A stretch of DNA of 64,000 nt. Origin: a virus. The notes beneath the pieces were generated by a model. It was not told where the DNA came from. It saw only the letters and a program-made list of their open reading frames with translations, and did no database searches. The position numbers were made by a program, and so were the translations under genes. Shown here one piece after another: positions 5,132 through 33,449 of this stretch (its first letter is position 1; each line of letters starts with the position of its first letter). The stretch lies in IMG/VR virus record IMGVR_UViG_3300036761_001580, positions 69,198-133,197 of that record; one strand, written 5' to 3'.

Positions 5132-5134
5132 TGC

Positions 5135-5468: not shown

Positions 5469-5497
5469 AATGTAACCACCGGCTAACGCCGGTCAAG
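5469..5497 (-). promoter_or_regulatory. class A promoter cassette
   Basis: ccccaatgtaacc ... ggtcaagggg followed by GGCCCGGTCGATTT upstream element. Confidence 0.55.
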
Positions 5498-5519
5498 GGG
5501 TGGCCCGGTCGATTTCCGA

Positions 5520-6005: not shown

Positions 6006-6038
6006 GCCGCACCTCCGGGGTTTTTCTTGCCTACCCCC

Positions 6039-6067
6039 AATGTAACCACCGGCTAGCGGCTGTCAAG
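6039..6067 (-). promoter_or_regulatory. class A promoter cassette
   Basis: cccccaatgtaacc ... tgtcaaggg. Confidence 0.55.
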
Positions 6068-6069
6068 GG

Positions 6070-6483: not shown

Positions 6484-6526
6484 GGCGTCCCTCCCCCGGT
6501 TGCGGTCGTTCGCTGTCCCTTGCCCC

Positions 6527-6555
6527 AATGTAACCACCGGTTGCGGGCTGTCAAG
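6527..6555 (-). promoter_or_regulatory. class A promoter cassette
   Basis: ccccaatgtaacc ... tgtcaaggg. Confidence 0.55.
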
Positions 6556-6557
6556 GG

Positions 6558-6731
6558 CTAGGGTGCGATCTCCTCGATGATCTTCGCCCTCTCGGCCTGG
6601 ACGTCGGCGAGGAATTCGGCCCGCGCCTCGCTCCTCGTGTAGTACAGGTACTTGCGCCGCACCAGATACCCGTTGACCCTCGCGGACAGTACCAGATACC
6701 CGTTGACCGTCTTTTCGACCGTGATCTTCAT
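6558..6731 (-). CDS. hypothetical small protein (57 aa) with internal in-frame 30-bp tandem duplication
   Basis: ATG 6731 with GGGGAGGAAACC RBS; duplication accagatacccgttgacc at 6661-6708 gives VNGYLV x2. Confidence 0.5.
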   Translation of the reverse strand: MKITVEKTVNGYLVLSARVNGYLVRRKYLYYTRSEARAEFLADVQAERAKIIEEIAP

Positions 6732-6762
6732 GGTTTCCTCCCCGGTTGCCGTCCCTTGTCCC

Positions 6763-6791
6763 AATGTAACCACCGGCTAGCGGCGGTCAAG
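6763..6791 (-). promoter_or_regulatory. class A promoter cassette
   Basis: cccaatgtaacc ... ggtcaagtgcc. Confidence 0.55.
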
Positions 6792-6798
6792 TGCCTGT

Positions 6799-7119
6799 CT
6801 ACCGGAAAAACTCGACGGTGCGGAGCCCTTCGATCTCCCGCACGGCGTCTTTGGCCTCGGCGCGGCTGTCCGCCCGGACGAACACCTCGACGGTACGATC
6901 CGCGTTGACCGCATGGTACAGGTTGGCGGGCATTCCCCAATACGCGCCGCCCGTGTCATAGCAACCGTCCACGAAGCGGAGACGGCGGAGGTGGAGCTTG
7001 CACGCGGGGCCGACGTTGTAGTACGTGGCACCTTTGTACTCTTCCGTGGGAATTCGGTTCCCGCGACCCATCGGAGCACCGTACTTACTGGAAACATTTG
7101 TGATCCCCGGATACGCCAT
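6799..7119 (-). CDS. hypothetical protein (106 aa)
   Basis: Internal ATG with GAGGGAAGGTG RBS; upstream track residues are the promoter repeat. Confidence 0.6.
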   Translation of the reverse strand: MAYPGITNVSSKYGAPMGRGNRIPTEEYKGATYYNVGPACKLHLRRLRFVDGCYDTGGAYWGMPANLYHAVNADRTVEVFVRADSRAEAKDAVREIEGLRTVEFFR

Positions 7120-7163
7120 GGTCCACCTTCCCTCGGTTGCGGCCGTTCGCTGTCCCTTGCCCC

Positions 7164-7192
7164 AATGTAACCACCGGCTAGCGACGGTCAAG
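7164..7192 (-). promoter_or_regulatory. class A promoter cassette
   Basis: ccccaatgtaacc ... ggtcaagggg + GGGCCGGTCGATTC upstream element. Confidence 0.55.
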
Positions 7193-7212
7193 GGGTGGGC
7201 CGGTCGATTCTC

Positions 7213-7677
7213 CTAGAACCACTCCCGCCCGGACATGGACACCGCGAGCGTCCCGTCCGCCCGGACGTTCGCCTCACGACCGAAAAAGAACTTCATGAGA
7301 CGGGCCTGGTTGCCCTTCTCGTCGTCGTCCGCCACCGGGGCCGTGGAAGTACGGGCCGGGGCCGGAACGGAGCTAGAAAGGCCACGCTCGCGCCGCCTGT
7401 CGGCGAGCGGCGGGTACTCCATGACGTTCCGGGGGTTCCACTCCCCCGCGCAGATGTAAGGTTCGTCCCCTTCCGTCTTCGTGTACGATACCGTGTCCTC
7501 GACTCGCCCTCTACGTCGGAGGTGTACCCCGTGGCACACGATAGCGACGATGGTAGCCGGAAGTGCGACAGCGCACCACATACAGATCCGGTGCCCGGTC
7601 GCGTCCTCGATCCCGTGTGTGGGGTACATATCGGTATCGATGCTTGTCGCCCCGCAACACTCGCAAGTGCCTATCAT
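7213..7677 (-). CDS. hypothetical Cys-rich protein (154 aa)
   Basis: GC3-rich ORF with several CxxC pairs; downstream of a class A promoter. Confidence 0.6.
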   Translation of the reverse strand: MIGTCECCGATSIDTDMYPTHGIEDATGHRICMWCAVALPATIVAIVCHGVHLRRRGRVEDTVSYTKTEGDEPYICAGEWNPRNVMEYPPLADRRRERGLSSSVPAPARTSTAPVADDDEKGNQARLMKFFFGREANVRADGTLAVSMSGREWF

Positions 7678-7722
7678 CGGAGTCTCCTTAGTTTGGGTGG
7701 GTAGTCGGCCCGCCTGGCTCCC

Positions 7723-7751
7723 AATGTAACGCTCGCTTTCATGCTGTCAAG
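7723..7751 (-). promoter_or_regulatory. class A promoter cassette (diverged spacer)
   Basis: cccaatgtaacg ... tgtcaagagg. Confidence 0.5.
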
Positions 7752-7754
7752 AGG

Positions 7755-8336
7755 CTAGCGCGAAAGCGCCTCGTACTCTTCCCACGTATCGTAACGGATG
7801 TAATCGTCGTGTTTCATCGGGCCGCACAACTTGTCGAACGTGGGGCGATCCCACAGGTTCGGATGGTGGCACGGGGCCGAGTCGCTACGGGACGTCTCTT
7901 TGAACCCTCGCCGCTCCATCTCCATGACGAACGCGGATTCGTTGTCGAACGTGAGCATCCCCCCTTCCAGGCCGCAAACCATGTACTTGAGCGGGGTGCC
8001 TACGTCCTCCGGGAAGAGCATCGCCTGGCCGCACCCGACGTCTTTCATCCAGTAGCCCGATCCGTCCGATGCGTACCACACGATCTCCAGAAGCGTGTTG
8101 TCCGCCTTCCGAATGATCGCGTGCAGGTTGTTCATGCCGTCGAACCACCCGCCCGACTTGACGAACGTCGTCACCACCTCGACCCTGAACCGGCTCACCA
8201 GGGCCGGAAGCGCCCGCTTGGCGAGCGCGAGGTGGTACTCGACGAACGACTTGGGCACCATGCCGCCCATGAGTGCCGACTTCTTCATGTCGTTGACGAC
8301 TTCGGCCGGAAGCGTGCCCTTCTCCCCGATGCTCAT
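7755..8336 (-). CDS. hypothetical protein (193 aa)
   Basis: GC3-rich ORF; RBS GAGGAGGAC upstream. Confidence 0.65.
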   Translation of the reverse strand: MSIGEKGTLPAEVVNDMKKSALMGGMVPKSFVEYHLALAKRALPALVSRFRVEVVTTFVKSGGWFDGMNNLHAIIRKADNTLLEIVWYASDGSGYWMKDVGCGQAMLFPEDVGTPLKYMVCGLEGGMLTFDNESAFVMEMERRGFKETSRSDSAPCHHPNLWDRPTFDKLCGPMKHDDYIRYDTWEEYEALSR

Positions 8337-8373
8337 GTGGTCCTCCTCGGTTGTTCGTTTCCCCTGGCTGGGA

Positions 8374-8402
8374 ATGTAACCACCGGTTTCAGGCTGTCAA
8401 GT
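8374..8402 (-). promoter_or_regulatory. class A promoter cassette
   Basis: gggaatgtaacc ... tgtcaagtgc. Confidence 0.5.
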
Positions 8403-8403
8403 G

Positions 8404-8541
8404 CTACTCCGGGTCAATCCCCTCCGCCGCTTCCACGAGGTCCTCGACAACCTCGTCCACCTCTTTCGACGTGAGGTCCTCCGGGGTTTCCAAGGCCGCC
8501 GCCGCGCGTCGGAGCAAGGCCGCGAGATCACGAGGCTTCAT
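8404..8541 (-). CDS. small acidic protein (~45 aa)
   Basis: ATG 8541 placed 5 nt after TAG of 8544..8789; the track's longer N-terminus overlaps the upstream gene. Confidence 0.4.
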   Translation of the reverse strand: MKPRDLAALLRRAAAALETPEDLTSKEVDEVVEDLVEAAEGIDPE

Positions 8542-8543
8542 GA

Positions 8544-8789
8544 CTACACCGTCTCCGGGTCGATCTCGACGGCGACCATCTTGTCCCCGTACTCGTCCAG
8601 GAGCTTCGCCAGATCGGACGCGAAGCGGACCGACGCCGACTCGTCGGTCATGCAAAACCGGACGCGCCCGTTGCGTATCGTGCGGACGACGACGTTGTGC
8701 ACCTTGGACCTATCCGAAAGCGTCTGCTCTTCCTCGTACAGATCAACGTGATCCGTGTGAACCGTATCCATGATCTTGAATCCGTCCAT
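8544..8789 (-). CDS. hypothetical protein (81 aa); first gene of leftward early arm
   Basis: ATG 8789 with ACGAGGAGGACAAC RBS directly downstream of the divergent class A promoter. Confidence 0.6.
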   Translation of the reverse strand: MDGFKIMDTVHTDHVDLYEEEQTLSDRSKVHNVVVRTIRNGRVRFCMTDESASVRFASDLAKLLDEYGDKMVAVEIDPETV

Positions 8790-8828
8790 GTTGTCCTCCT
8801 CGTTTGGTCGTTGCCCTGCCTACCGGGG

Positions 8829-8857
8829 AATGTAACCATGGGGAAAAGAGAGTCAAG
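8829..8857 (-). promoter_or_regulatory. class A promoter (leftward member of divergent pair)
   Basis: ggggaatgtaacc ... agtcaagcccc. Confidence 0.55.
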
Positions 8858-8861
8858 CCCC

Positions 8862-8889
8862 TTGACCTCCGAAAACCCGGTGTTACATT
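8862..8889 (+). promoter_or_regulatory. class A promoter (rightward member of divergent pair)
   Basis: ccccTTGACCtccgaaaacccggtgtTACATTgggg. Confidence 0.55.
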
Positions 8890-8930
8890 GGGGCAAGGCG
8901 GCCAGACTACCGCACAACAGGGAGGACGAG

Positions 8931-9155
8931 ATGGCGGATATGAAGTTCAAGAAAGAATGTATCACGAGGAGCGTTTGCCCATACTGCGGGAGTCGCAACA
9001 CGAAGGACGAGGGTGAAAGCCTCTATGAGGCAAACGAAGAGGACATCAAGCTGTACATCTGCGGGTGCCACGATTGCGGAAAGGAATGGCGCAACGTCTT
9101 CCGCCAGATCGACGTGATCGAGGGTGACGTGTACCCGGAGGTTGACGAGCCCTAG
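8931..9155 (+). CDS. small zinc-ribbon protein (74 aa); paralog of 12117..12329
   Basis: RBS GGGAGGACGAG-ATG; CPYCG...CGCHDCGKEW motif; conserved 5' leader. Confidence 0.65.
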   Translation: MADMKFKKECITRSVCPYCGSRNTKDEGESLYEANEEDIKLYICGCHDCGKEWRNVFRQIDVIEGDVYPEVDEP

Positions 9156-9159
9156 GCAC

Positions 9160-9187
9160 TTGACAGCCACTATCCTGTGGTTACATT
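9160..9187 (+). promoter_or_regulatory. class A promoter cassette
   Basis: cTTGACAgccactatcctgtggtTACATTgggg; leader near-identical to 8890-8930. Confidence 0.55.
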
Positions 9188-9228
9188 GGGGCAAGGCGGC
9201 ACGACTACCGCACAACAGGGAGGACGAC

Positions 9229-9411
9229 ATGGGAAAGAAGAAATCCAAGACGTTCGACGTCACGATCCGGGCAACGATCACGAAGACCATCACCGTCGAG
9301 GCCAAGGACGAAGACGAGGCCTGCGAGATCGCGCACGGGGAGTTCTCGGTGCTGAACGACGATGACCCCGAGGATTACGACGAGGAAACCGTCAACGTCG
9401 AAGAAGTCTGA
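9229..9411 (+). CDS. hypothetical small acidic protein (60 aa)
   Basis: RBS GGGAGGACGAC-ATG; GC3-rich. Confidence 0.55.
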   Translation: MGKKKSKTFDVTIRATITKTITVEAKDEDEACEIAHGEFSVLNDDDPEDYDEETVNVEEV

Positions 9412-9412
9412 C

Positions 9413-9610
9413 ATGACGAAACGAGCACAAAGGATAATCATCAGTCCCGAGCAAGAGGCCAGGGACGAGTACCTCTCGGCGCTCGCGACCTACCGGGAGG
9501 TCCGGCACGCGCCGGGCTCCGAGGACGAGGCGATCCGTGCCGTGCGAGCGGTCATGGATCGGGCCTATGACCTGTACGTCAAGACGTGCCACCCGAGGAG
9601 GGCAACATGA
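9413..9610 (+). CDS. hypothetical protein (~65 aa)
   Basis: ATG 3 nt after the previous TGA; GC3-rich. Confidence 0.5.
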   Translation: MTKRAQRIIISPEQEARDEYLSALATYREVRHAPGSEDEAIRAVRAVMDRAYDLYVKTCHPRRAT

Positions 9611-9861
9611 TCAAGAAGAAGCCGGAAGAGACGGGGATCGAGTTCCTCCGTCGTCTCGTAAGCGTGGCGAATTACACGAACGAGGAGGTGTTCGACGATC
9701 TCTCCGTCGAGGAGACGATCAAGCTCATCCGCGCGTGTTGGGATTCCGAGTTCGACATCTACGCAGACGCACTGTCGCCCAGCGAGAGGGCTTTCGCGGC
9801 GCGGACCGGTAAGCTGTCGAAGAAAGCCGTTGACCGGCTCAACAGCCTGTATGGGGACTAA
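9607..9861 (+). CDS. hypothetical protein (84 aa)
   Basis: ATGA overlap with upstream stop; RBS GAGGAGGG. Confidence 0.6.
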   Translation: MIKKKPEETGIEFLRRLVSVANYTNEEVFDDLSVEETIKLIRACWDSEFDIYADALSPSERAFAARTGKLSKKAVDRLNSLYGD

Positions 9862-9877
9862 AAGACCGCGCAACCCC

Positions 9878-9905
9878 TTGACACCCCGCAATCGATGGTT
9901 AGATT
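9878..9905 (+). promoter_or_regulatory. class A promoter cassette (-10 TAGATT)
   Basis: ccccTTGACAccccgcaatcgatggtTAGATTagggg. Confidence 0.5.
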
Positions 9906-9940
9906 AGGGGTACGAGGGCAACGCAACCGAGGAGGTCGAA

Positions 9941-10258
9941 ATGAGATCCGAAATGAAGAGTGCCGGACGCGCAGCGGCGGCCGTTCCGTTCGAGAAGGTG
10001 GAGCTGTCGAAGACGCTGGAAGCCGTGGCGTTCGTCCAGGTGTGCCTGGGGTGCGCTTACGACTCTCTCAAGTCGGGTGAGGTCGAGGACAACCCCGAGC
10101 CGCCCATGGACCTGGAGGGGATCGTGGAGGACATCAATCACGCTTGCGAGAAGCTCCAAAGGGAGATCCGCAAGCTCGACAGGAACACGCGCCTGGCGCT
10201 CGACATCGAGGTGGATCACACCTACGATCTCGTGCACCGCAACAGCCCGACGAGGTAG
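9941..10258 (+). CDS. hypothetical protein (105 aa)
   Basis: RBS GAGGAGGTCGAA-ATG. Confidence 0.65.
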   Translation: MRSEMKSAGRAAAAVPFEKVELSKTLEAVAFVQVCLGCAYDSLKSGEVEDNPEPPMDLEGIVEDINHACEKLQREIRKLDRNTRLALDIEVDHTYDLVHRNSPTR

Positions 10259-10269
10259 GGGAGGACGTC

Positions 10270-10545
10270 ATGAGCGGTTTCAATTGGGCAGGGTTCGTTA
10301 GCGTAATCCCCGAGGACATCACCCTCGTGGGCAACGCCAGGGGCAACATGAAGATCCTGGCGCAAGTCTTGGACGAGGGGTTCGAGGGCATGAAGCCGAT
10401 CTCCGAGGCGCGCAAGCGGGTGCTCGTGAGGAGCATCGAGAAGTTCACCATGGCGGCGACCGAGCTGAAACTGCTCTTGGAGGCGTTCTCCGCCGATCTG
10501 GAGTGCCGCGAGGCCGGGATCGACCCCACGGGCAACGAGGGCTAG
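10270..10545 (+). CDS. hypothetical protein (91 aa)
   Basis: RBS GGGGAGGACGTC-ATG; the track's upstream 42 aa are an Arg-rich artefact. Confidence 0.6.
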   Translation: MSGFNWAGFVSVIPEDITLVGNARGNMKILAQVLDEGFEGMKPISEARKRVLVRSIEKFTMAATELKLLLEAFSADLECREAGIDPTGNEG

Positions 10546-10563
10546 AAAGAGCCGAGTAGCCTC

Positions 10564-10591
10564 TTGACACCCCGCTAGGGGTGGTTACATT
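10564..10591 (+). promoter_or_regulatory. class A promoter cassette
   Basis: cctcTTGACAccccgctaggggtggtTACATTgggg. Confidence 0.55.
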
Positions 10592-10638
10592 GGGGATAGG
10601 CGGGATGACTACCCGCCGGCAACGACAAGGAGAACCCG

Positions 10639-11082
10639 ATGGACGAGAAGACGAAAATCCCGATGGATCTGCGGATCTTCATCGACGATGAGACGGAGTT
10701 CTACAACGGCATCCCGGACGGGGTGGGCAAGATCTTTTCGGCGCACCTCTTCGACGCGAACCTGGACGTGCACATCTGCTCGTTCCAGGCGAACAAGGAG
10801 TGCTACTACATCGGCCACACGTTCACCACGACGCGGGATATGACCGATGAGGAGCTGGAAGCGGCGGACGAGTACCTCCGGGAAGCGAACCGCGAGGAGC
10901 CGCGCGTCGACTACTTCGACGGCAAGATCAAGGGGCACCCCTATACGGTCGAGCCGCGCCCCAAGGCAGACGACCCCGAAGAGGCGCAGAGGCTTTACGA
11001 AGAGGTCATGGAGGAGCACATCGAGTACCTCGTCTGCAACTCCGAGACATGGGATTGTCTGGTCGGAAAGCCGGTCGAGTAG
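10639..11082 (+). CDS. hypothetical protein (147 aa)
   Basis: RBS AAGGAGAACCCG-ATG; leader stem-loop GGCGGG-atgACTAC-CCGCC. Confidence 0.7.
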   Translation: MDEKTKIPMDLRIFIDDETEFYNGIPDGVGKIFSAHLFDANLDVHICSFQANKECYYIGHTFTTTRDMTDEELEAADEYLREANREEPRVDYFDGKIKGHPYTVEPRPKADDPEEAQRLYEEVMEEHIEYLVCNSETWDCLVGKPVE

Positions 11083-11085
11083 CCC

Positions 11086-11113
11086 TTGACAGCCGCTCCC
11101 CGATGGTTACATT
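11086..11113 (+). promoter_or_regulatory. class A promoter cassette
   Basis: cccTTGACAgccgctccccgatggtTACATTgggg. Confidence 0.55.
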
Positions 11114-11147
11114 GGGGATAGGCGAGAAGAACAACGGGAGGGACATC

Positions 11148-11645
11148 ATGGACGCAAGGATGAAGGTCGCGAACGAGCTGAAGAAGGAGATCCGGCGATC
11201 CCTGGGCAACTACCCCAAGGTGACGAAGGTCGAGGTTCTCGGCCTGGAGAACGAGGGGCTCATGATCGCTGTCCGGTACCACACGACCGACGTCGTGAAG
11301 CTGTACCTGAACAAGGCGGGTTACGCGGTCATGTCGGTCGTGGTGACTTCGGGCGGGTGGATCTCGAAAACGACCGCCGAGCGGATCAACGCGGTGCTCC
11401 GCCACTTGAAGACGGGGTTCTTCGTGCGGTTCACCTACAAGCGGGAGACGTTCGCACGGGGCACCATGGGCCGCCAGATGGGCGACAGCCTGTACGACCA
11501 GAAGTTCACGCTCGTGGGACAGGGGATCGAGATGCCCTTCGAAGACGGGATGACGTTCAAGCGGGGCCGGGACGGGTTCAAGCTCACGTACCCCGGCAAG
11601 GCCGCGCAGAAGAGGCTCGCGAAGGTCGTCGTCGCGAAGAGGTAG
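11148..11645 (+). CDS. hypothetical protein (165 aa)
   Basis: RBS GGGAGGGACATC-ATG. Confidence 0.7.
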   Translation: MDARMKVANELKKEIRRSLGNYPKVTKVEVLGLENEGLMIAVRYHTTDVVKLYLNKAGYAVMSVVVTSGGWISKTTAERINAVLRHLKTGFFVRFTYKRETFARGTMGRQMGDSLYDQKFTLVGQGIEMPFEDGMTFKRGRDGFKLTYPGKAAQKRLAKVVVAKR

Positions 11646-11654
11646 GAGGACGCC

Positions 11655-11885
11655 ATGAAGAAGGTTATCGAAGTCAGCAAGGCGACAAAGGGTCAGATCT
11701 CGGTGCGGCTCGCGTTGCTCCGAGAGCAGGTAGAGACGCTCCGCGAAGACCTCGTGGTCGAGGACAGCGACAGCCAAGAGGCAAGCGACACCCTGGGGAC
11801 CATCCTCGACCTCATGATCGAGGCCGAGGGCTACCTGGACGCGGACGATCCGAACCAGGCAGAACACCTGGAGACGGGCGTCTAG
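11655..11885 (+). CDS. hypothetical acidic protein (76 aa)
   Basis: RBS GAGGTAGGAGGACGCC-ATG. Confidence 0.6.
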   Translation: MKKVIEVSKATKGQISVRLALLREQVETLREDLVVEDSDSQEASDTLGTILDLMIEAEGYLDADDPNQAEHLETGV

Positions 11886-12073
11886 TGCCACTCTTCATAG
11901 TGACGAAAAAGGAGATCTGGCGGCAGCGTGTCCTCGTCGAAGCCGAAGACGCAAACGAAGCCCGGTACAAAGCCGAGAAGGGCGAATCCGAGATCCATGA
12001 AGATCCACAGTACGAGGATGACCTCCTCGACAGGTTGTGGGCGGTAGAAGAGATTGAAGACCACACCGCTTGA
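11886..12073 (+). CDS. possible small protein (62 aa, GTG start)
   Basis: GTG immediately after TAG; GC3-rich acidic frame; stop TGA sits inside the next -35. Confidence 0.35.
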
Positions 12074-12097
12074 CAGTCACTCAGGGATGGTTACATT
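12070..12097 (+). promoter_or_regulatory. class A promoter cassette
   Basis: cgcTTGACAgtcactcagggatggtTACATTcc. Confidence 0.5.
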
Positions 12098-12116
12098 CCA
12101 AGCAGGAGGGACGAAC

Positions 12117-12329
12117 ATGGCGAAGATGAACTTCAAGGACGAGTGCCTGGCGAGCGGCGGATCGAAGTGCCCGTACTGCGGAAAGTACAACACCTGGGAG
12201 CACTCGATCACGGACAGCGACGACGAGGACGACGTCAAGAAGGTCACCGTCGAGTGCCACGATTGCGGCAAGGAGTGGACCGCCACCTTCCGCATCGAGG
12301 ACGTGACCGAAGTCGACGAGGAGGTCTGA
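12117..12329 (+). CDS. small zinc-ribbon protein (70 aa); paralog of 8931..9155
   Basis: RBS AGGAGGGACGAAC-ATG; CPYCGKYN...CHDCGKEW. Confidence 0.65.
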   Translation: MAKMNFKDECLASGGSKCPYCGKYNTWEHSITDSDDEDDVKKVTVECHDCGKEWTATFRIEDVTEVDEEV

Positions 12330-12330
12330 G

Positions 12331-12525
12331 ATGGCAACGAAGAAAACCATGCCGAAATGGCTCCGGAAGCTCTCGGCCGTGCAGAGGAAGCACCTCGCGG
12401 AGACGTGCGACGACGGGGTGACGCTTCGAGCATTCTGGAACAACCGCCAGTACCAGAAGGATCACTACATCGTATGCCGGGAATGCGAGGACATCGAGCA
12501 CCGGCTGACCGCCGAGAAGAGTTGA
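12331..12525 (+). CDS. hypothetical protein (64 aa)
   Basis: RBS CGAGGAGGTCTGAG-ATG; CRECEDIEH. Confidence 0.6.
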   Translation: MATKKTMPKWLRKLSAVQRKHLAETCDDGVTLRAFWNNRQYQKDHYIVCRECEDIEHRLTAEKS

Positions 12526-12535
12526 ACCCAGCCCC

Positions 12536-12563
12536 TTGACAGCCGCTCCCCGATGGTTACATT
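12536..12563 (+). promoter_or_regulatory. class A promoter cassette
   Basis: ccccTTGACAgccgctccccgatggtTACATTagggg. Confidence 0.55.
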
Positions 12564-12612
12564 AGGGGTAGGAGAGGCGAGCTGACTACTCGCACTGAAC
12601 AAGGAGAACATC

Positions 12613-12885
12613 ATGGACCTGAACAAGCTGATCGAGATCGTGGACGAGGGATACCCGGACGGGTTCGTGAAGCGGTGCTTCGACAACCCGAAGAAGGACC
12701 ACGGGGATACCCTGGCACTCTTCCTGGCCCGAGAGGTCAAGGACACGTTCGACGCGGACGCGACCGACGAGGCGCAGGTAGCCGAGGCGATCCGCGTCAT
12801 GGAGATGGCCCGGCGGGAGCTGGGAGACGTGCTCGTGGTCCTGGAGCGAGTCAAATTCACCAAGACCGGCAACGCGGTGAGGTAG
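12613..12885 (+). CDS. hypothetical protein (90 aa)
   Basis: Conserved leader hairpin GCGAG-ctgACTAC-tCGC + AACAAGGAGAAcatc-ATGGAC. Confidence 0.65.
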   Translation: MDLNKLIEIVDEGYPDGFVKRCFDNPKKDHGDTLALFLAREVKDTFDADATDEAQVAEAIRVMEMARRELGDVLVVLERVKFTKTGNAVR

Positions 12886-12889
12886 TCCG

Positions 12890-13135
12890 ATGGGCGAGGC
12901 ACGACGCCGAGCGGCAACCCGAGAAGAGCGCGCAGCTCAGAGCATCGCGCGCAAGGCTCGTGCCGAGGAGGCCAAGCGGGAAGACGCGCACAAGTGGTGG
13001 GAGGGCCTGACCGAAGAGGAGAAGGAATCCCAGCGGAAGGTGTGGCACGAGAAGGACAAGAAGCGAGCCAACGCGCGGCTGGTCATGGCGGCAGCAATGG
13101 GTCTGTTCGTCGGGGCAGATAGGGGGCTGAAATGA
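12890..13135 (+). CDS. hypothetical basic/coiled protein (81 aa)
   Basis: RBS GAGGTAG; Lys/Glu/Arg-rich. Confidence 0.55.
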   Translation: MGEARRRAATREERAAQSIARKARAEEAKREDAHKWWEGLTEEEKESQRKVWHEKDKKRANARLVMAAAMGLFVGADRGLK

Positions 13136-13353
13136 AACTGTGCCGCGACCAATTCGTAAAGAATGCATCGATAGGCCCCGATGCCCTCGTGGAGTTCTAT
13201 TGCACACGGAAAGCCGGTCATGCAGGGAAGCATTCCTGTGAGGTACAGAGCCTTCGTAGGGAGTCCGATAAAGGCTGGGTAAATGACGGATTCCCAATGG
13301 ACGACGTGAGTGACGGAGAGGGCACGCGCAAGGTGGGTATTCTTTCCTGGTAG
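13132..13353 (+). CDS. hypothetical protein (73 aa); start of a lower-GC patch
   Basis: ATGA overlap; local GC ~52%. Confidence 0.5.
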   Translation: MKLCRDQFVKNASIGPDALVEFYCTRKAGHAGKHSCEVQSLRRESDKGWVNDGFPMDDVSDGEGTRKVGILSW

Positions 13354-13359
13354 TAGCCC

Positions 13360-13387
13360 TTGACAGCCTCTCCCGAGTGGTTACATT
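13360..13387 (+). promoter_or_regulatory. class A promoter cassette
   Basis: cccTTGACAgcctctcccgagtggtTACATTcc. Confidence 0.5.
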
Positions 13388-13404
13388 CCAGGTAGGAGGA
13401 CAGC

Positions 13405-13562
13405 GTGGACACCGAGAAGAAACGACGTGCGAAGAGTGACAAGCTGGCGCTCGAAGAGCTGGTCGAGGAGATCGAGCCGGTAGAGCCGGTCGAGAAGAGG
13501 GTACGATCCTGGTTGCCGAAATTGGGTGACGTCCTCAACCTCCAGCCGACGAGAGCAAAGTG
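13405..13562 (+). CDS. possible small protein (52 aa, GTG start)
   Basis: RBS AGGTAGGAGGACAGC-GTG; below ORF-track size cutoff. Confidence 0.35.
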
Positions 13563-13799
13563 ACTTTGAAAGTCAAGATGCACCGTATCGTCCAAGGAGA
13601 CGACCTCTTAGAAAGAGCAGAGAAGCTCGGGCTCCCCGACGACTGCCAGCTCGCACTCATAGACGGACAATGGGCTCCGGCATTCCGTTGGGTTAGAGAA
13701 TATTACCTCCGCCGGGGTTCGTCGGATATCAGAAGTACGGCATGGGTTCTTATCAACGCCCACATCATAGAAGAGTATGAAGTCGAAGTGCAAGAATGA
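13560..13799 (+). CDS. hypothetical protein (79 aa)
   Basis: Overlapping start with previous stop; lower GC. Confidence 0.5.
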   Translation: MTLKVKMHRIVQGDDLLERAEKLGLPDDCQLALIDGQWAPAFRWVREYYLRRGSSDIRSTAWVLINAHIIEEYEVEVQE

Positions 13800-14104
13800 A
13801 ATCGAACGAGTGTATAGGTTGCGGATTTTGTTGCCGCAAAAGTCCGTGCAGTTTCTACCAGCTCGAAGATTGGGCAGCGTGGCACGGGTGCCCGCACCTC
13901 TTGTGGGACGGCACTCGGTGGGTGTGCGGAAAGTACGTCGAAGAGCCCGATACGAAGGTGAAAGAGCGTATGAAATTCTATCTCGCATTCGGCGCGGGTT
14001 GCAACTGCAATTTGAACACGTATAGGCGCACTTGCCACGTCCCGACACCGGAGGAACTGAAGGATGAAAAAGCCCTGCTTGACCGACTCCACAAGACCAA
14101 GTGA
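13796..14104 (+). CDS. hypothetical Cys-rich protein (102 aa)
   Basis: ATGA overlap; CIGCGFCC...CNCN pattern; lower GC (moron-like). Confidence 0.55.
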   Translation: MKSNECIGCGFCCRKSPCSFYQLEDWAAWHGCPHLLWDGTRWVCGKYVEEPDTKVKERMKFYLAFGAGCNCNLNTYRRTCHVPTPEELKDEKALLDRLHKTK

Positions 14105-14333
14105 GCCGGTCGTAAAGTCTCCCGGGGTCAATGTGCCCCCGGAATTCAAGGTCTTCATGATGCTCATGGCGCGGTCGTTCTCCGGGAGTGACTCCGTCTC
14201 CACGGCACTGAACCAACTGAGAAAACTCCTCACAGACAAGCACGGTCCCGAGTACGCAAATGCTTACGTGTACGAGCTAGCGCAAGCCTACGCTTCGAGG
14301 CGCTCGAAGTTCATGCAGGATTTCTGCGGTTAG
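14064..14333 (+). CDS. hypothetical protein (up to 89 aa; start uncertain)
   Basis: ORF overlaps previous gene by 40 nt; an internal ATG at ~14157 is an alternative start. Confidence 0.35.
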   Translation: MKKPCLTDSTRPSEPVVKSPGVNVPPEFKVFMMLMARSFSGSDSVSTALNQLRKLLTDKHGPEYANAYVYELAQAYASRRSKFMQDFCG

Positions 14334-14337
14334 CTCT

Positions 14338-14365
14338 TGACAGCCTCACTATAGTAGTTATATTC
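14338..14365 (+). promoter_or_regulatory. class A promoter cassette (-10 TATATT)
   Basis: ctcTTGACAgcctcactatagtagtTATATTccc. Confidence 0.5.
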
Positions 14366-14412
14366 CCAAGTAGGAGAAGCGAGCTGACCCTCGCTGAACA
14401 AGGAGAAGATCA

Positions 14413-22334: not shown

Positions 22335-22688
22335 TCAGCCACCGCAGACCTCCCTCCAGAGAGCCACGATCCCGATAGGCTCCCAGCCCCGGGAAGTGCC
22401 CTCCTCCAAGAAGGCATCCATGTCCACCGGGATGCCGTTCAGCATGGCAGACACGGCCTGGAGGCCCTTCGACTCCCATTTCAGGCGCTCTTGGTCCTCA
22501 CCCTCCGAGGACATGATCGTAGCCGCAACCGCAGCCCTGAACTTCTCATCAGGTGTGAGGACACCGATGCCGACCACACCCTCGTGAGCTTCCTTCATCG
22601 CAAAGCGCAGCTTCTCCTTTAAGGTGCCCTTGAAGTCCTTGAGGTGCTCTTTGAGCACAGACGCTTCGAGAATCAACACGTTCGACAT
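22335..22688 (-). CDS. hypothetical protein (117 aa)
   Basis: Downstream of an isolated class A promoter copy. Confidence 0.6.
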   Translation of the reverse strand: MSNVLILEASVLKEHLKDFKGTLKEKLRFAMKEAHEGVVGIGVLTPDEKFRAAVAATIMSSEGEDQERLKWESKGLQAVSAMLNGIPVDMDAFLEEGTSRGWEPIGIVALWREVCGG

Positions 22689-22718
22689 CTAGCCCTCCTT
22701 GTACTCGGACACAACCCC

Positions 22719-22747
22719 AATGTAACCACCCCAAGCGAGGTGTCAAG
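22719..22747 (-). promoter_or_regulatory. class A promoter cassette (isolated copy in late block, abutting IS right end)
   Basis: ccccaatgtaaccaccccaagcgaggtgtcaagacc. Confidence 0.5.
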
Positions 22748-24045
22748 ACCATTCGGATCGTGGTCACCGAAGTGAACTATCGTTGCTTACGCAACGATTT
22801 CCGCCTTCACCGGGACCCGCGACACGGAAGGCTTTCGCCCCCTGCGCCGACTGACAGTCCCTCCAGCGGCAGCCGCCCCAGCTCCTGAGGCAGTTACCGG
22901 AATCGCACCGGCCAAGATCATTCTCTTTGCTTCGTCTCGGATGTTGCACGCAGCGTTCTCGTCCCGGTCGTGTACGGACCCACAGTGCCGACAGGTCCAG
23001 TACCGTACCGACAACTTCATGCCTTCGTGAAGACACCCGCAAACGTTGCACATCTTCGTAGACGGATAGAAGCGGTTCGTCTTGATGAACCCCTTCCCCG
23101 CTCGCTCGGCCTTGTACTTCGCAAAGTTGGTGAACATTCCCCACCCAGCACTCGAAATTGCCTTTGCCAAGTTGGGGTTCTTCACCATTCCCTTCACATT
23201 CAAGTCCTCGACAGCGATCACTTGGTTCTCGTTGACCAACCGTCTGGACAGCTTGTGAACGAAGTCCTTCCGAGCGTTCTTTACCCGTTCGTGTACACGG
23301 GCTACCAGCTTCCGTGCCTGATCCCGGCTCTTCGAGCCCTTCTTCTTCCGTGACAGCTTCTGCTGCTTGCGCTTCAAGTTCCTTTCTGCCTGCTCCAGGT
23401 GCTTGGGGTTTTGAAAGTGGCTGCCTGTGCTTGTTACTGCGAAGTCCTTCAACCCCACGTCCATTCCGAGCACCGATCCCTCGAACGACACCACGGGCAT
23501 CGGAGCGCCGTCGTCGGTGAGTACTAATGCGTAGTAGTGGCCGCACGGTTCGCACTTCACCGTGACCGTCTTGATCTCGCCCACGATGGGTCGATGAATG
23601 ACGGCCTTGAACCATCCGATCTTCGGTAGAAAGACGCGCTTGGCATCGACCTTTACACACTGGGGAAACTGGATCGACTTCGGACCGAACTTGCTCTTGA
23701 AGCGTGGATATTTCCCCCGACGCTCAAAGAAGTTCACGAAGGCCCGCGACAGGTTGCGTAAAGACTGCTGAAGCATCTGAGCGTTAGCTTCTTTCAGCCA
23801 TTCGTACTCTTCTTTAAGAACTGGAAGACGTGCTGACATGCCCTCGTACCCAAGACCCTTACCAGTCTCCCTATACAGACGTTGCGTCTCGGCCAACGCA
23901 TCATTCCACACCCAGCGGGAGCATCCAAATTGCCGCGCCAACACTTGTCCCTGACATGCGTTTGGGTACAGACGAATTCGAGTAGCAGACAACATTGATT
24001 ACAGTATATCTAATTATCTGCAAAGTGCAACTCTTTTCCAGTACA
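22748..24045 (-). mobile_element. IS200/IS605-family TnpB-only insertion sequence (~1.3 kb)
   Basis: tnpB ORF; GC ~54% vs ~63% flank; right-end hairpins cgttgcTTAcgcaacg (stop codon in loop) and gacca-N9-tggtc; AT-rich left end 23996-24045. Confidence 0.6.
22787..23995 (-). CDS. tnpB: TnpB (OrfB_IS605 RuvC-like RNA-guided nuclease family), 402 aa
   Basis: Family-typical RuvC-like motifs (GMDVGLKDF, VAVEDLNVKGM) and C-terminal zinc finger (CNVCGC...CRHCG, RDENAACNI). Confidence 0.9.
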   Translation of the reverse strand: MLSATRIRLYPNACQGQVLARQFGCSRWVWNDALAETQRLYRETGKGLGYEGMSARLPVLKEEYEWLKEANAQMLQQSLRNLSRAFVNFFERRGKYPRFKSKFGPKSIQFPQCVKVDAKRVFLPKIGWFKAVIHRPIVGEIKTVTVKCEPCGHYYALVLTDDGAPMPVVSFEGSVLGMDVGLKDFAVTSTGSHFQNPKHLEQAERNLKRKQQKLSRKKKGSKSRDQARKLVARVHERVKNARKDFVHKLSRRLVNENQVIAVEDLNVKGMVKNPNLAKAISSAGWGMFTNFAKYKAERAGKGFIKTNRFYPSTKMCNVCGCLHEGMKLSVRYWTCRHCGSVHDRDENAACNIRDEAKRMILAGAIPVTASGAGAAAAGGTVSRRRGRKPSVSRVPVKAEIVA

Positions 24046-24630
24046 TCACACTCCTGAAGTCAGTTCCTTGACCACCATCTCGGCAAGAGCCTTGTGACCC
24101 CGGTAGTTGAGGTGCAGACCGTCCCCGGCGTCGTACTCCTTGAGCAAGGTGTCCTCCTGATCGGCGAGGTACCTGGTGTCGACCATGCGGATGTAGCCCT
24201 CCCAGCGCGACTCCATCATCGAGTTGAGCAGGTACGAGCAGGCAGAACCATGCCACGACTTCGGCTCCCCGAACCATCCGTGGTGCTTCACTACGACGGG
24301 CGTCGAGTCTGAGAACTCGATCTTCCGCACCAGACGTTCAAGCCTGTTGAAGACGATGTAGGGATCCGAATTCGCATCCGCGCAGTCGTTGAGACCGGCG
24401 TACAGCACCACGTAGGTGGGCTTCTTCGCGAGCGCCTTGTCGACCAGCTTATGGATTCGCTTGATCCGCGCCCCTTGCACTGCGTACCGGTACAGTGGCG
24501 TGTGCAGGGCCTTGGCCGCGATCTCAGGGTAGTACCCGGCCGTGATGCTGTCCCCCACGAAGACCACCGTGTCGGTGGGCTGGAACAGCGCGAGCGCGAG
24601 GATGAGAAGGAGTGTGTTCATTTCGACCAC
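24046..24630 (-). CDS. secreted SGNH/GDSL-family hydrolase (esterase), 194 aa
   Basis: N-terminal signal peptide MNTLLLILALALF; FVGDSIT block I motif; DxxH near C-terminus. Confidence 0.75.
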   Translation of the reverse strand: MVEMNTLLLILALALFQPTDTVVFVGDSITAGYYPEIAAKALHTPLYRYAVQGARIKRIHKLVDKALAKKPTYVVLYAGLNDCADANSDPYIVFNRLERLVRKIEFSDSTPVVVKHHGWFGEPKSWHGSACSYLLNSMMESRWEGYIRMVDTRYLADQEDTLLKEYDAGDGLHLNYRGHKALAEMVVKELTSGV

Positions 24631-29436: not shown

Positions 29437-29985
29437 CTAGGGCTCGGTGACCTCTTCGAAATCTTCGGCCAGGATGTCCGTCTGCGATGCGAGCCACGGG
29501 ATGAGGTAGTCCCCGACCGTCTTCATGTAGATGTACGGCAGGGTCATCTTCGAGTTCACGTCCGGCTTCTGGAGGGCGATCCACATGCCCTTGCCGTTCC
29601 AGCCGGACCTGCGGAACTTCTTCCCCGGGAACGCCTTCAGCTCGCGGATGACCGTGGCGAAGTCGACGGGCGTGGGGGAGTCATCCCCCGTCCAGTTGAG
29701 CTGCTCGCAGTTCACGGTGCCGACCCCCTCGGAGGTCTTCGTGGCATCCGCGAGCGCGAGGTTCGGAACGCCGAACTCGACGCGGCCGGGGCCGGGGGGA
29801 TCGAACAGCCGGAAGACCGACCCCCTCTTGATGGCCTCGAACTCCGCCGGCTCCCACTTGCCCGTCTGGGTGTTCAGGATGTCGCACTGACGCTGATTCT
29901 TCTCCACAATCCCACCTCTTTCTTTTGGTACGTCTATTGGGTCTGCCCCAGGAAGCCACCCGCATGGACTTATGAGCACTTTCAT
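29437..29985 (-). CDS. DUF2829/Tad2-like domain protein (~182 aa)
   Basis: C-terminal half FRRSGWNGKGMWIALQ...LPYIYMKT...IPWLASQTDILAEDFEEV resembles DUF2829 (Thoeris anti-defence Tad2 fold), from memory; start in ATGA overlap. Confidence 0.45.
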   Translation of the reverse strand: MKVLISPCGWLPGADPIDVPKERGGIVEKNQRQCDILNTQTGKWEPAEFEAIKRGSVFRLFDPPGPGRVEFGVPNLALADATKTSEGVGTVNCEQLNWTGDDSPTPVDFATVIRELKAFPGKKFRRSGWNGKGMWIALQKPDVNSKMTLPYIYMKTVGDYLIPWLASQTDILAEDFEEVTEP

Positions 29986-30746: not shown

Positions 30747-33449
30747 CTACTCGGGCTTCCGAGCCTTCTTGCCGGCGGCCTCCTCGGGCTTCTCGGACCT
30801 GCCGAGCCCCTTGCCGATCCTCTCGATGAGGCTGTCGATGCCCAGCCCGCCGAACCTGGACTTGAGCAGCTCGACGACGTCCTTGTCCTCGAACATCGCC
30901 AGCGGGCCGAGCGCCGTCGCCAGCGTCCCCGCCGTGTTGCTCTCCGCCAGCATCCTGAGGGTCGCGATGAGCTGCGGATCCACGGCCTCGCCGAGGACCT
31001 TCGCCTTCTCGGCCTCGGCCACGAGCAGCTTGATCTGGAGGTCGATCTCCTGGGTCCTCGCCCCGATGCGGAACTCGAAGTTCTCCTCCTCCTTGGTGAG
31101 GTTGCTGGTGAACTCGGCCTTGTCGATGACGATGCCCTTCTCGACCTCCTCCAGCCTGCCCTCCAGGTGAGCCAGAGCTTTGGTGTGCTCGATGGCCTCC
31201 ATCTCCTGGGCCCTCTTGAGCGCGTCGATGGCGAAGCCCTCCCGGGTCTTCGCCAGCGTATCGCGGATCTTCGCCGCGGTCGCTTCACCCTCGGCCTTGG
31301 TCTCCTCTTCGTTCAGGCTGAGCGCCGTCAGCTCCTCGGTCCTCAGGACGCGGGCCTTGGCCTCCTCGATCTCCAGGGCATCGATGAGGGCCTTGCGCGC
31401 CCTAGCGTCGAGCTTGGCGGCCAGGGACTGGTCGGCCAGCTGGACCTTGTGCACCTCGACGTCGTACACCTTCATGGAGTTCTCGGAGAAGTAGAGCCCC
31501 TTGCGCTCGCCGTTCTCGACCTTCGCCCCCAGGATGATGTCCCGGATGATGTTGATGGCGTTGCCGTAGAAGTCCCGGATCGAGATCGCCTGGACGGCGT
31601 TCTTCAGCCGGCTCCGGGCGTGGTCGCAGAGGAACTTCACGTAGTTCTCCACGTCGAACCACTTCGCCTTCTGCTCGCCGTCGAAGTCCACCCGGTAGGA
31701 CAGCTTGATGTGGACCGGGCACATGTCCTTGGTCTCGACAGCGACGACGTCGGAGACGATGTTGTTCCTGGCCCGCAGGTAGACCGTCTCGATGAGCTTG
31801 TCAGACGTCTTCGGCGTCCCCGTGGACAGACTCAGCGGCTCCAGGGTCTCGTCGTAGTCGAGCAGCAGGGTCGTCGGCCCCTCGACCACGCGGCGGGTGC
31901 CGTCCTTCTTGACGACCATGACGGCGTACCCGTTCCACACGTTGACGGTGACCACCCCGTCGTACTTGCTGTCGAGGGTGAGGGTGCGCGGCGCGTTGTA
32001 GCGGGTGGCCCGGTCGAACTCGTCACCACCGATGCCCTCCGCCACGTTGCCGAAGCCCTCCGGAGCCACAGCCATGTCGAGGAGCATGGAAGAAGAGAAG
32101 ACCGCACTGGCTGTCGCTGCCGCCATGTTGACCGAGGAGCCGCCCTTGTCGAAACCACGGGAGGTCATCTGACGGCGGACGGCCGCGTCCTCCACGTAGG
32201 TCTGGGAGTTGTCGCTGATCAGATTCATCAGCTCCGCGTTGAACTGCGCGGCGACCGTGTTGCCGGGGTAGTACAGCTGGACCTGCTTCTGGGAGAGGAT
32301 CCTCCGCACGATGACCTCGGTGCGGGGGTCGGGCAGCATCATCTTCGGCCCCTTGGTGGTCTCGATCTTGCCACCCATGCGGTCGAGGACGTACCGCCCC
32401 TCACCCTCGGGGATGATGACGGCGTGGTGCCGGTCCTTGCCGTCGTACCGGATGACGGCGTGCTCCGGCCTCGGGAAGTAGATCTTCTGCTCCTTGCCGG
32501 TGATGAACAGCTCGTCGCCCTCGCTGTACTTCTTCCCGCCCTCCTCGTAGGCCTTGATGACCTTGATGTAGAGGCCGGAGATCTCGTTCAGCTCGATGGC
32601 CCGGAACTTCTTCGCGGCCACGCCCTTGGCGGTCTTGTCCTCCACGAACCACTGCGTGGGCTTCGGGAACACCACCGCCGGCCCGCGGACGTACTCCTTG
32701 TTCCCATCCTCGTCCTGGAGGATGCAGTATTGGAGCTGCTCCAGGGTGATCGCGCTCTGGACGAAGTCAGCCGTGCCGGACGTGGTGTTGCCCATCTGAG
32801 CGACCTCCACTCCGTCTGGCGGGATGTAGAAGTGGACCTTGGTCCCTTTGACGACGAAGAGCTGCCCGATGGGGAGCGCGGCGGCGAGGCTCGTGGTGGA
32901 GTCGGGCACGTCCTTGCTCTCGTTCCCGGACTTCGCGGGCTTCTCGATCTTGTCGAGACCGTCGTAGATGGACAGGTCCGCCGGGCGGTTCTTCAGGGCC
33001 TTCACGAAGAGATCGGTGTCGTAGACCCGGACCATGAGGTACTGGTTGGACCTCAGGGTGTGGCCCTTGATCACCTTCACCATCTGGCCGGGCCAGAGCG
33101 CGAAGGAGTCGGGACCGGAGATGTTGACCTTGCGGCCGATGTCGAGCCCGGCGACGGTGAGATCGTTGATCCCCTTCTCCGGATGCTTCTGCTTGGTGGC
33201 CGGGTTCTTGATGTGGCAGTACCAGCCCTCCGGGATCACGACGAACCGCTGGATGGCGGCGCTGCTGCCGGCGGGCATGAAGCGCTTCTTCTCGTTGTCC
33301 CACACCACGAGCTGATCCGTGTTGGACAAGCTGTGCTTGTAGGGCCCCACCACGACGCTGACGATACCCTTCGTCTTGTCGAGATAGAAGGTGAACTCGT
33401 TGGGAGCCAGGACCAACTCGGCTTCTCGGACGGGGACTTGCTCGGTCAT
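30747..33449 (-). CDS. major vault protein (MVP) homolog, ~900 aa
   Basis: N-terminal MVP-repeat-like motifs (VGPYKHSL, RFVVIPEGWYCHIKNP), shoulder-like ETKDMCPVHIKLSYRVDFD, long C-terminal coiled coil; probable start M13 with AGGAGA RBS; class B promoter. Confidence 0.8.
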   Translation of the reverse strand: MTEQVPVREAELVLAPNEFTFYLDKTKGIVSVVVGPYKHSLSNTDQLVVWDNEKKRFMPAGSSAAIQRFVVIPEGWYCHIKNPATKQKHPEKGINDLTVAGLDIGRKVNISGPDSFALWPGQMVKVIKGHTLRSNQYLMVRVYDTDLFVKALKNRPADLSIYDGLDKIEKPAKSGNESKDVPDSTTSLAAALPIGQLFVVKGTKVHFYIPPDGVEVAQMGNTTSGTADFVQSAITLEQLQYCILQDEDGNKEYVRGPAVVFPKPTQWFVEDKTAKGVAAKKFRAIELNEISGLYIKVIKAYEEGGKKYSEGDELFITGKEQKIYFPRPEHAVIRYDGKDRHHAVIIPEGEGRYVLDRMGGKIETTKGPKMMLPDPRTEVIVRRILSQKQVQLYYPGNTVAAQFNAELMNLISDNSQTYVEDAAVRRQMTSRGFDKGGSSVNMAAATASAVFSSSMLLDMAVAPEGFGNVAEGIGGDEFDRATRYNAPRTLTLDSKYDGVVTVNVWNGYAVMVVKKDGTRRVVEGPTTLLLDYDETLEPLSLSTGTPKTSDKLIETVYLRARNNIVSDVVAVETKDMCPVHIKLSYRVDFDGEQKAKWFDVENYVKFLCDHARSRLKNAVQAISIRDFYGNAINIIRDIILGAKVENGERKGLYFSENSMKVYDVEVHKVQLADQSLAAKLDARARKALIDALEIEEAKARVLRTEELTALSLNEEETKAEGEATAAKIRDTLAKTREGFAIDALKRAQEMEAIEHTKALAHLEGRLEEVEKGIVIDKAEFTSNLTKEEENFEFRIGARTQEIDLQIKLLVAEAEKAKVLGEAVDPQLIATLRMLAESNTAGTLATALGPLAMFEDKDVVELLKSRFGGLGIDSLIERIGKGLGRSEKPEEAAGKKARKPE

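Follow-up and report, generated by a model that had tools for sequence, protein, structure and literature searches.

A tnpB-only OMEGA module in a jumbo phage genome with a predicted guide derived from a displaced Toprim gene

A gene for a TnpB-family protein of 402 amino acids (aa) was found in a 64,000-nucleotide (nt) stretch of viral DNA (positions 69,198 to 133,197 of IMG/VR record IMGVR_UViG_3300036761_001580; this whole stretch is referred to as the window). The evidence supports the assignment of this locus to an IS200/IS605-family, tnpB-only (IS1341-type) OMEGA module in a phage, and comparison with sister phages indicates that its predicted guide is a fossil fragment of a TopoVI-A/Spo11-like Toprim gene and not promoter sequence. 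We favor, with moderate confidence, the view that the locus is the remnant of an element that inserted in the Toprim gene, and that the gene and the left end of the element were later deleted while nuclease, scaffold, and guide were kept. IS605-family tnpB-only OMEGA elements in phages are already known; what is new here is that the decayed state of the element reveals the origin of the guide. TnpB elements abound, yet their guides are rarely readable in biological terms; in this case, sister genomes reveal the guide as a catalytic-motif fragment of the gene that was displaced.

An intact tnpB gene without a transposase partner

22787..23995, minus strand: tnpB coding sequence, 402 aa, stop codon included, from the list of open reading frames (ORFs)

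An earlier note, made from the sequence of this DNA alone, had described the product of this ORF as a TnpB with RuvC-like and zinc finger motifs, and every comparison bears this out. The protein matches the Pfam domains HTH_OrfB_IS605 (PF12323), OrfB_IS605 (PF01385), and Cas12f1-like_TNB (PF07282), each over its cutoff, and the NCBIfam model guided_TnpB (349.6 bits; cutoff, 100). ISDra2 TnpB (8EXA, 8BF8, and 8H1J) aligned with residues 6-370 of the window TnpB with an E value of 2e-80, and residue-by-residue alignment revealed the RuvC D/E/D motifs (GMDVG, AVEDL, and HDRDENAA) and both CxxC pairs of the zinc finger (CxxC..CxxC) to be kept. The ORF is free of frameshifts and internal stop codons, and the ratio of nonsynonymous to synonymous substitution rates against relatives is 0.04-0.15. 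Taken together, the reading frame, the retained residues, and the substitution ratio show a predicted nuclease gene that is intact and under purifying selection.

The closest relatives of this TnpB, with 72-78% protein identity, occur in unrelated surroundings on further contigs that are phage or phage-like, while matches in cellular genomes reach 57-59% identity at most. A TnpB homologue was found in 603 phage records, with 53% as the best identity. The absence of TnpA reported earlier was borne out: no Y1 (HUH) transposase (Y1_Tnp Pfam match) was present among the 43 called genes of L027, a 20.8-kb Logan contig identical to the window, and among the closest relatives on contigs long enough to judge, no TnpA was called and the sites differ. 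On a phage-like contig represented by L206 and L207 (523..2878 in each), a 74%-identical tnpB adjoins two tandem genes with AcrVA2-like (anti-CRISPR) Pfam matches.

The element has a guanine-plus-cytosine content of 54.9%, compared with 58.5-59.0% in its flanks and 60.6% in the window, which places it in the lowest 1.3% among equal-sized windows. The deficit is thus 4-6 points and not the approximately 9% initially reported. No terminal inverted repeat of note was found in the element.

Right end and omega-RNA scaffold

22772..22779, minus strand: right-end terminus TAGTTCAC, last element base 22772, placed by comparison with relatives
22779..22798, minus strand: right-end subterminal hairpin ATCGTTGC-GTAA-GCAACGAT, across the tnpB TAA stop codon, read in the sequence
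22772..22893, minus strand: predicted omega-RNA scaffold, 122 nt, five helices, overlapping the last 107 nt of tnpB and stopping at the right end

When the element and its flanks were aligned with L001, L002, L025, L028, and L029, similarity to L001, L028, and L029 broke off directly after TTCAC. The terminus (T/A)A(G/A)TTCAC recurs in approximately 40 relatives, down to 55% protein identity, with unrelated DNA beyond it in each. The last base of the element is therefore 22772 and not 22748, where the element had been thought to adjoin a class A promoter (22719-22747); this promoter is real and lies 24 bases away, with its -35 hexamer beginning 25 nt past the right end.

Several hairpins had been proposed for the right end. 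The one that spans the tnpB stop codon is present, and it is the only family-typical hairpin there. As DNA it folds with -10.7 kcal/mol (z score, -3.2), and its stem is preserved by compensatory changes (ATCGTTGC/GCAACGAT in the window versus, e.g., CTGTCGCA-TTCA-TGCGACAG in relatives).

The tnpB 3' end together with the right end is supported as encoding a putative omega-RNA scaffold, as the earlier note had anticipated. A consensus structure computed with RNAalifold from the last 125 nt of 25 family members contains five helices with 37 pairs, 26 of which show compensatory changes. Within this alignment, 96.9% of cells are paired, versus 34-51% after shifting the partners by 1-3 columns, and none of 500 shuffles reached the observed values. 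The covariance model built from it, R1, has its sole significant match in the window at 22772..22893 (110.6 bits; E value, 4e-20), where a high score is expected, as the window sequence is part of the training alignment; the scaffold scores as well as that of any family member. R1 gave no match at an E value of ≤10 in the sister phages L030, L204, and L205, and no omega-RNA family of Rfam matched around the locus at an E value of ≤1. R1 thus provides an omega-RNA model, supported by covariation, for a TnpB clade that is largely phage borne, and it could seed an Rfam family.

The predicted guide and its source gene

22752..22771, minus strand: predicted guide TTCGGTGACCACGATCCGAA, 20 nt past the right end, codons F-G-D-H-D-P
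22719..22747, minus strand: phage promoter CTTGACA..GTGGTTACATT, neighbor outside the element

By standard OMEGA logic, according to which the guide is read from the DNA adjoining the right end, 22752..22771 was taken as the guide. Its 20-mer occurs once in the window. The sequences following TTCAC are mutually unrelated in the 29 relatives examined, as copy-specific guides would be, and among 215 tnpB loci, no other than L027 carries the same guide.

Three sister phages (L204, L030, and L205) carry no tnpB at this position and have, in the corresponding place, a gene for a 304-aa protein or its homologue. The predicted guide matches this gene on the same strand at 19 of 20 bases in L205 and at 18 of 20 in L204 and L030; none of 200 shuffles gave a match in L204 or L205. 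When the 304-aa protein was searched against the window with tblastn, the guide site was the only match, with IVHFGDHDPNGLD aligned against VLYFGDHDPSGLD. Directly past the guide fragment follows TGGTCTTGACAC. All three sister phages have this context at a phage promoter (promoter P), and the window has it at no further promoter copy. The junction of fragment and promoter lies in a microhomology, GTGG(A/T)CT(C/T)GA, which reads GTGGACTCGA in the gene and GTGGTCTTGA at P.

The 304-aa gene had no Pfam, NCBIfam, or PADLOC match and no PDB sequence match, but it matches PHROG 6247, annotated as DNA topoisomerase, with an E value of 1e-95. Its family is large (4,897 matches at an E value of ≤1e-5), with members that are unnamed or called hypothetical in their sources. 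The codons covered by the guide belong to Y-x-G-D-H-D-P-S-G, a motif invariant in 37 homologues of 52-95% identity. On the basis of a fold match and general knowledge of Toprim domains, FGDHDPSG is presumably the Toprim DxD metal-binding motif, and the gene would be a TopoVI-A/Spo11/MksG-like Toprim gene. A by-product of this comparison is a predicted fold for a gene family of approximately 4,900 members that has no Pfam domain.

The guide had previously been equated with promoter sequence. On that view, the locus would be a complete and recent IS1341-like insertion, and it could target or regulate class A promoters much as the nuclease-dead TldR repressors do. Read-through transcripts would indeed include the promoter, given how close to the right end it lies. 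TnpB guides, however, are approximately 16-20 nt long, as established for ISDra2, and the 20 nt that follow base 22772 are Toprim-gene sequence present at this one place in the window. Unlike TldR, the TnpB here has intact RuvC residues, and the left end is incomplete (see below). We therefore consider a promoter-directed guide highly improbable.

Sister phages and the variable slot

24046..24630, minus strand: upstream flanking gene, GDSL-family lipase/acylhydrolase (Pfam Lipase_GDSL_2; E value, 4e-17)
22335..22688, minus strand: downstream flanking gene, 117 aa, from the ORF list

Both flanking genes are conserved in the sister phages: the GDSL protein is 97% identical in L030, and the DNA of the 117-aa gene is 84-85% identical in L030 and L204. 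The 117-aa gene had no Pfam, PHROG, or NCBIfam match; a search of IMG/VR with it gave no match, and the only exact match to its first 23 nt was again in the L030 contig. The slot between the two genes was compared over L030 5001..7911, L204 4404..6272, L205 1..1580, and window 22335..24630. In L204, the order is GDSL, promoter P, 304-aa gene, 117-aa gene. L030 has a 264-nt spacer between GDSL and P, and P is followed by the genes of 104, 304, 151, and 117 aa, in that order. In L205, GDSL and P precede a 95-aa gene, behind which come a second P, the homologue of the 304-aa gene (298 aa), and a short homologue of the 151-aa gene.

Comparison with related phages had been put forward as one way to judge the insertion. 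It supports an insertion in that the sisters have no tnpB at this position, whereas the left end could not be delimited. Nor was the site otherwise intact, as a clean insertion would leave it: the sister phages hold a whole gene cassette here, of which 20 nt are left in the window.

The slot is hypervariable across four sister phages, holding one to three small genes, each behind its own copy of the phage promoter. Such a slot resembles the promoter-mediated cassette shuffling of T4-type phages. The promoter family, CTTGAC(A/C)..(G/A)TGGTTACATTGGGG, is present in 26 copies in the window, versus 0.4 expected. Most copies are located at 2.9-14.4 kb (2900..14400) on both strands, with others at 16884, 22747, 33526, and 41431, and the strand switches at approximately 8.86 kb, where copies stand back to back at 8857 (minus) and 8861 (plus). 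This array resembles a divergent early region in which each small gene has a promoter of its own. The upstream context of the promoter at 22747, tggtCTTGACAC, matches that of the GDSL-end promoter of L204, L030, and L205 and is shared by no other copy in the window, and the promoter at 22719..22747 thus probably corresponds to cassette promoter P of the sister phages.

An exact 13-mer, AGGTGAATGGCGT, was found in the 264-nt spacer of L030 (5655..5667; E value, 0.05) and is identical to the conserved box located behind the left-end hairpin of L001 and L206. The spacer was considered as a miniature remnant of the same element, which proved unsupported, as the omega-RNA model finds no right-end remnant in it; the 13-mer is left unexplained.

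Loss of the left end and the tnpB promoter

24003..24030, minus strand: putative tnpB promoter, TTGCAC (24030-24025), 16-nt spacer, TATACT (24008-24003), in the surviving inner left end
24031..24059, minus strand: junction DNA CTTCAGGAGTGTGATGTACTGGAAAAGAG, in place of the left-end hairpin and terminus, providing the last codons and stop of the GDSL gene

In relatives, a short AT-rich flank borders the left end, and approximately 12 nt separate it from a subterminal hairpin. A conserved box comes next, then a TTGACT-N16/17-TATACT promoter, with the ATG 7 nt past the -10 box. The hairpin and box are CTGTCGTC-TTTA-GGCGACAG and GTGAATGGCG in the close clade and CCCCGGCC-TTCA-GGCCGGGG and ATATAAGGCG in the clade of 60% identity. 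Of this order, the window retains only the inner part. The block TTGaCt-N16/17-TATACT-GTAAnnnATG is conserved across relatives, and the TTGCAC-N16-TATACT block of the window is predicted to act as the tnpB promoter, with a -35 hexamer weaker than the TTGACT/TTGACA of relatives. This promoter of the element itself probably still drives synthesis of TnpB and omega RNA. The tnpB ATG stands 7 nt past the TATACT box throughout the family (24003..23993 in the window, and likewise in relatives), with no Shine-Dalgarno sequence, which suggests that the tnpB mRNAs of this family may be leaderless.

Outside the promoter, the sequence of 24031..24059 is unrelated to the left ends of relatives and to the sister phages. 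Homology to the sister phages ends at approximately 24060, within the last codons of the GDSL gene, the C terminus of which is altered as a result. We accordingly place the left boundary of the foreign DNA at about 24059 and not at approximately 24045, where it had been put before, and no IS605-type terminus is present at the left end. No left-end hairpin was detected in the window, where the region folds no better than shuffles (z score, +1.09). The left-end stems of L028 and L001 are clear in minimum-free-energy and centroid folds, with weak z scores over 80 nt (-1.5 and -0.3). The nearest relative, L212 (78% identity), likewise shows no left-end hairpin. The sequence CAAGGAACTGAC was considered as the 5' arm of a left end, but its homology to L030 identifies it more plausibly as the 3' end of the GDSL gene.

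Judged by its ends, the window copy is not a complete, mobile IS605-type element. Because both the left-end hairpin and the terminus are absent, it would not be mobilizable by TnpA, and we infer that it is unable to transpose. What stands of the earlier description as an IS1341-like insertion is thus the IS605-family, tnpB-only module; its completeness does not, with the left-end hairpin and the junction that would display a target-adjacent motif (TAM) both missing.

A possible history of the locus

In the favored history, the element would first have inserted, in sense orientation, in the Toprim gene of an ancestral phage; the site would have lain 3' of codons for Leu and Tyr, which would have supplied a TTAT-like TAM. 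Later deletions would have removed the disrupted Toprim gene and the outer left end, and the promoter-led cassettes and repeated promoters of the slot may have favored them. One deletion would have fused the gene fragment to the cassette promoter via the microhomology described above. The end product would be the order seen today: GDSL, truncated left end, tnpB, right end, 20 nt, P, and the 117-aa gene.

Several observations weigh against this history. The cassette promoter lies downstream of the element, whereas the single P of L204 and L030 and both P copies of L205 are upstream of the Toprim gene. With the promoter on the "wrong" side, an in situ history needs at least two deletions, or else an ancestor with an unobserved extra promoter after the gene. 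IMG/VR yielded no progenitor, in which the same element, complete at its left end, would interrupt an otherwise whole Toprim gene. At the other side of the element, 24059..24041 was aligned with the Toprim gene as a possible 5' remnant (TCAGGA-GT--GTGaTgTAC versus L205), and this match was not significant (297 of 2,000 shuffles). The visible sequence comprises 64 kb of a genome of approximately 212 kb, and a second, intact Toprim copy may be located elsewhere. Finally, expression, omega-RNA processing, the TAM, and cleavage are all deduced from sequence.

TAM and candidate targets

The window copy has no left-end junction from which a TAM could be read. In the close clade, the left-end flanks at four clear boundaries are TTTAT|CCAGA (L001), TTTAG|CCCGA (L206), GGTAG|CCAGA (L028), and CGTAT|CAGCT (L214), and in the clade of 60% identity, they are TTAT|C or TTAAC|. 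These flanks point to a TAM that would be TTAT- or KTAK-like. The TnpB-omega RNA complex would then cut DNA in which a suitable TAM is followed by TTCGGTGACCACGATC..., i.e., intact Toprim alleles. In the window, the protospacer copy is preceded by TTCAC, and since this is not a TAM, the target copy carried by the phage itself would be protected.

The protospacer in the Toprim gene sits behind Leu-Tyr codons. In the alleles of L204, L030, and L205, these codons are CTC TAC, which places CTAC 5' of the protospacer where a TTAT-like TAM would be expected, and L030 and L204 have in addition a mismatch at guide position 6, within the seed. Four IMG/VR phages have CTT TAT|TTYGGTGA..., i.e., TTTAT, but with 4-6 guide mismatches. 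In the IMG/VR contigs L031 and L042, GTG TAT|TTCGGTGACCACGATCC was found, a 17/17 match with GTAT ahead. It is therefore plausible that an ancestral allele had a suitable TAM, whereas the nearest present-day alleles look nonpermissive for the predicted complex.

These targets bear on whether the module might still serve the phage. One possibility is that selection maintains the cassette because it works as an RNA-guided weapon or homing device, which would cut the Toprim gene of related phages in coinfection. The rival genome would then be destroyed or be repaired from this phage, with tnpB replacing the Toprim cassette, and the flanking GDSL and 117-aa genes, at 84-97% identity to the sister copies, could act as homology arms. 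This would amount to "transposon non-restorative homing" or to localized marker exclusion by a TnpB. A 2026 review describes transposon non-restorative homing to coinfected phages and plasmids as theoretical for phages, with experimental support from plasmids only (PMC13565253).

Such a role would fit the intact state of the nuclease and guide module beside a lost transposition module (the left end), and L212 likewise shows no left-end hairpin. It would also fit the length of the retained gene fragment, which at 19-23 nt is nearly guide sized and abuts the next functional element, and the nature of the target, an invariant catalytic motif of a widespread family (4,897 homologues), as is typical of homing endonuclease targets. 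The distribution of the closest relatives (72-78%), which on longer contigs are phage borne or phage-like, at different sites, and without a called TnpA, agrees with it as well, as do the 19/20 guide match in L205 and the 17/17 match behind GTAT in L031 and L042. However, all three sister alleles carry CTAC and not a TTAT- or KTAK-like TAM, two of them have the seed mismatch, and all of the features listed would also be expected if a disrupted gene had decayed passively around a selfish element. On balance, we regard selection for such a weapon or homing device as possible but rather unlikely, and slightly more doubtful still is the specific proposal that a left-end-less TnpB-omega RNA persists in a jumbo phage as a homing or interference nuclease with a fixed guide against the Toprim DxD motif of rivals. 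If this were true, the locus would be an example from nature of transposon non-restorative homing among viruses and might stand midway from selfish OMEGA elements to RNA-guided nucleases of the defense type; if it is only a decaying insertion, the finding is an ordinary one. The locus is a concrete and testable natural candidate for a TnpB acting between coinfecting phages.

Alternatively, the locus might be a dead relic, immobile, with nuclease and guide idle and with an ORF that is intact only because insertion and deletions were recent. The lost left end, the weaker -35 hexamer of the tnpB promoter, and the failure to find, in the closest sister phages, a matching target behind a plausible TAM would agree with this. 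Against it, the ORF has neither frameshift nor stop, the catalytic residues and zinc ligands are all present, the scaffold scores like any family member and the terminal hairpin has compensatory changes of its own, and the guide-sized flank is intact beside a deletion junction. We consider a dead relic improbable and retain the reading given at the outset, a remnant of an inserted element that has kept its nuclease, scaffold, and guide.

Other features of the phage genome

33554..33630, minus strand: tRNA-Pro(UGG), adjoining the transfer-messenger RNA (tmRNA) gene
34385..34750, minus strand: tmRNA gene
30747..33485, minus strand: gene for a protein of approximately 900 aa (L027 134..2836)
29437..29907 (approximate), minus strand: gene with a Tad2-like (anti-Thoeris) Pfam match (L027 3676..4146)

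An IMG/VR contig of 211,982 bp has 78-98% DNA identity to the region across the aligned stretches, and the host genome is that of a jumbo phage of roughly 210 kb. A megablast search of the locus against INPHARED phages gave no match. The tmRNA gene matches Rfam RF00023 with 74 bits (gathering score, 47), and ARAGORN predicts the tag peptide ADADVIPFPKMAVPSLQRAA; together with tRNA-Pro(UGG), it is unusual cargo, found mainly in very large phages. The protein of approximately 900 aa has weak precomputed Pfam matches to MVP_shoulder and Vault_3 (major vault protein) and no PHROG match, which is odd for a phage. The Tad2-like gene is located approximately 5.4 kb from the tnpB locus.

Comparison with known systems

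Among the closest known systems is the TnpB and right-end element RNA of ISDra2 from Deinococcus radiodurans, an IS200/IS605 element. Its TnpB is homologous to the window protein and has the same D/E/D residues and zinc finger, and in both, the guide-RNA scaffold overlaps the tnpB 3' end and the right end, with the DNA past the right end as the guide. In contrast to ISDra2, the window copy has no tnpA partner, left-end hairpin, or terminus, would be neither excisable nor restorable, and resides in a phage genome. The TAM of ISDra2 is TTGAT, whereas the TAM predicted from relatives of the window copy is TTAT-like.

Stand-alone tnpB genes annotated as transposases, like that of the window, are known from IS1341-type phage elements such as the "transposase" of Microcystis phage Mic1 and those of Cluster F mycobacteriophages. 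The window copy differs from these in that the DNA it replaced is known from sister phages, its guide can be traced to a gene motif, and its left end is truncated.

TldR proteins, the nuclease-dead TnpB-like repressors of phages, resemble the window system: both are phage encoded, combine a guide RNA with a protein of the TnpB family, and stand beside a promoter. The RuvC catalytic residues of the window TnpB are intact, however, and its predicted guide does not match promoter DNA.

A functional analogy can be drawn with the free-standing homing endonucleases SegF, SegB, and MobE of T-even phages, which act in intronless homing and localized marker exclusion. There, too, a nuclease gene is located between conserved genes in a variable slot. 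Its target (predicted in the case of the window) is part of the allele that related phages carry at that locus, and the nuclease-bearing phage itself has, or in the window is predicted to have, no cleavable site (PMC13565253). Recognition by the window system would differ in using a guide RNA and a TAM instead of the protein, and in the nearest sister alleles this TAM is apparently absent.

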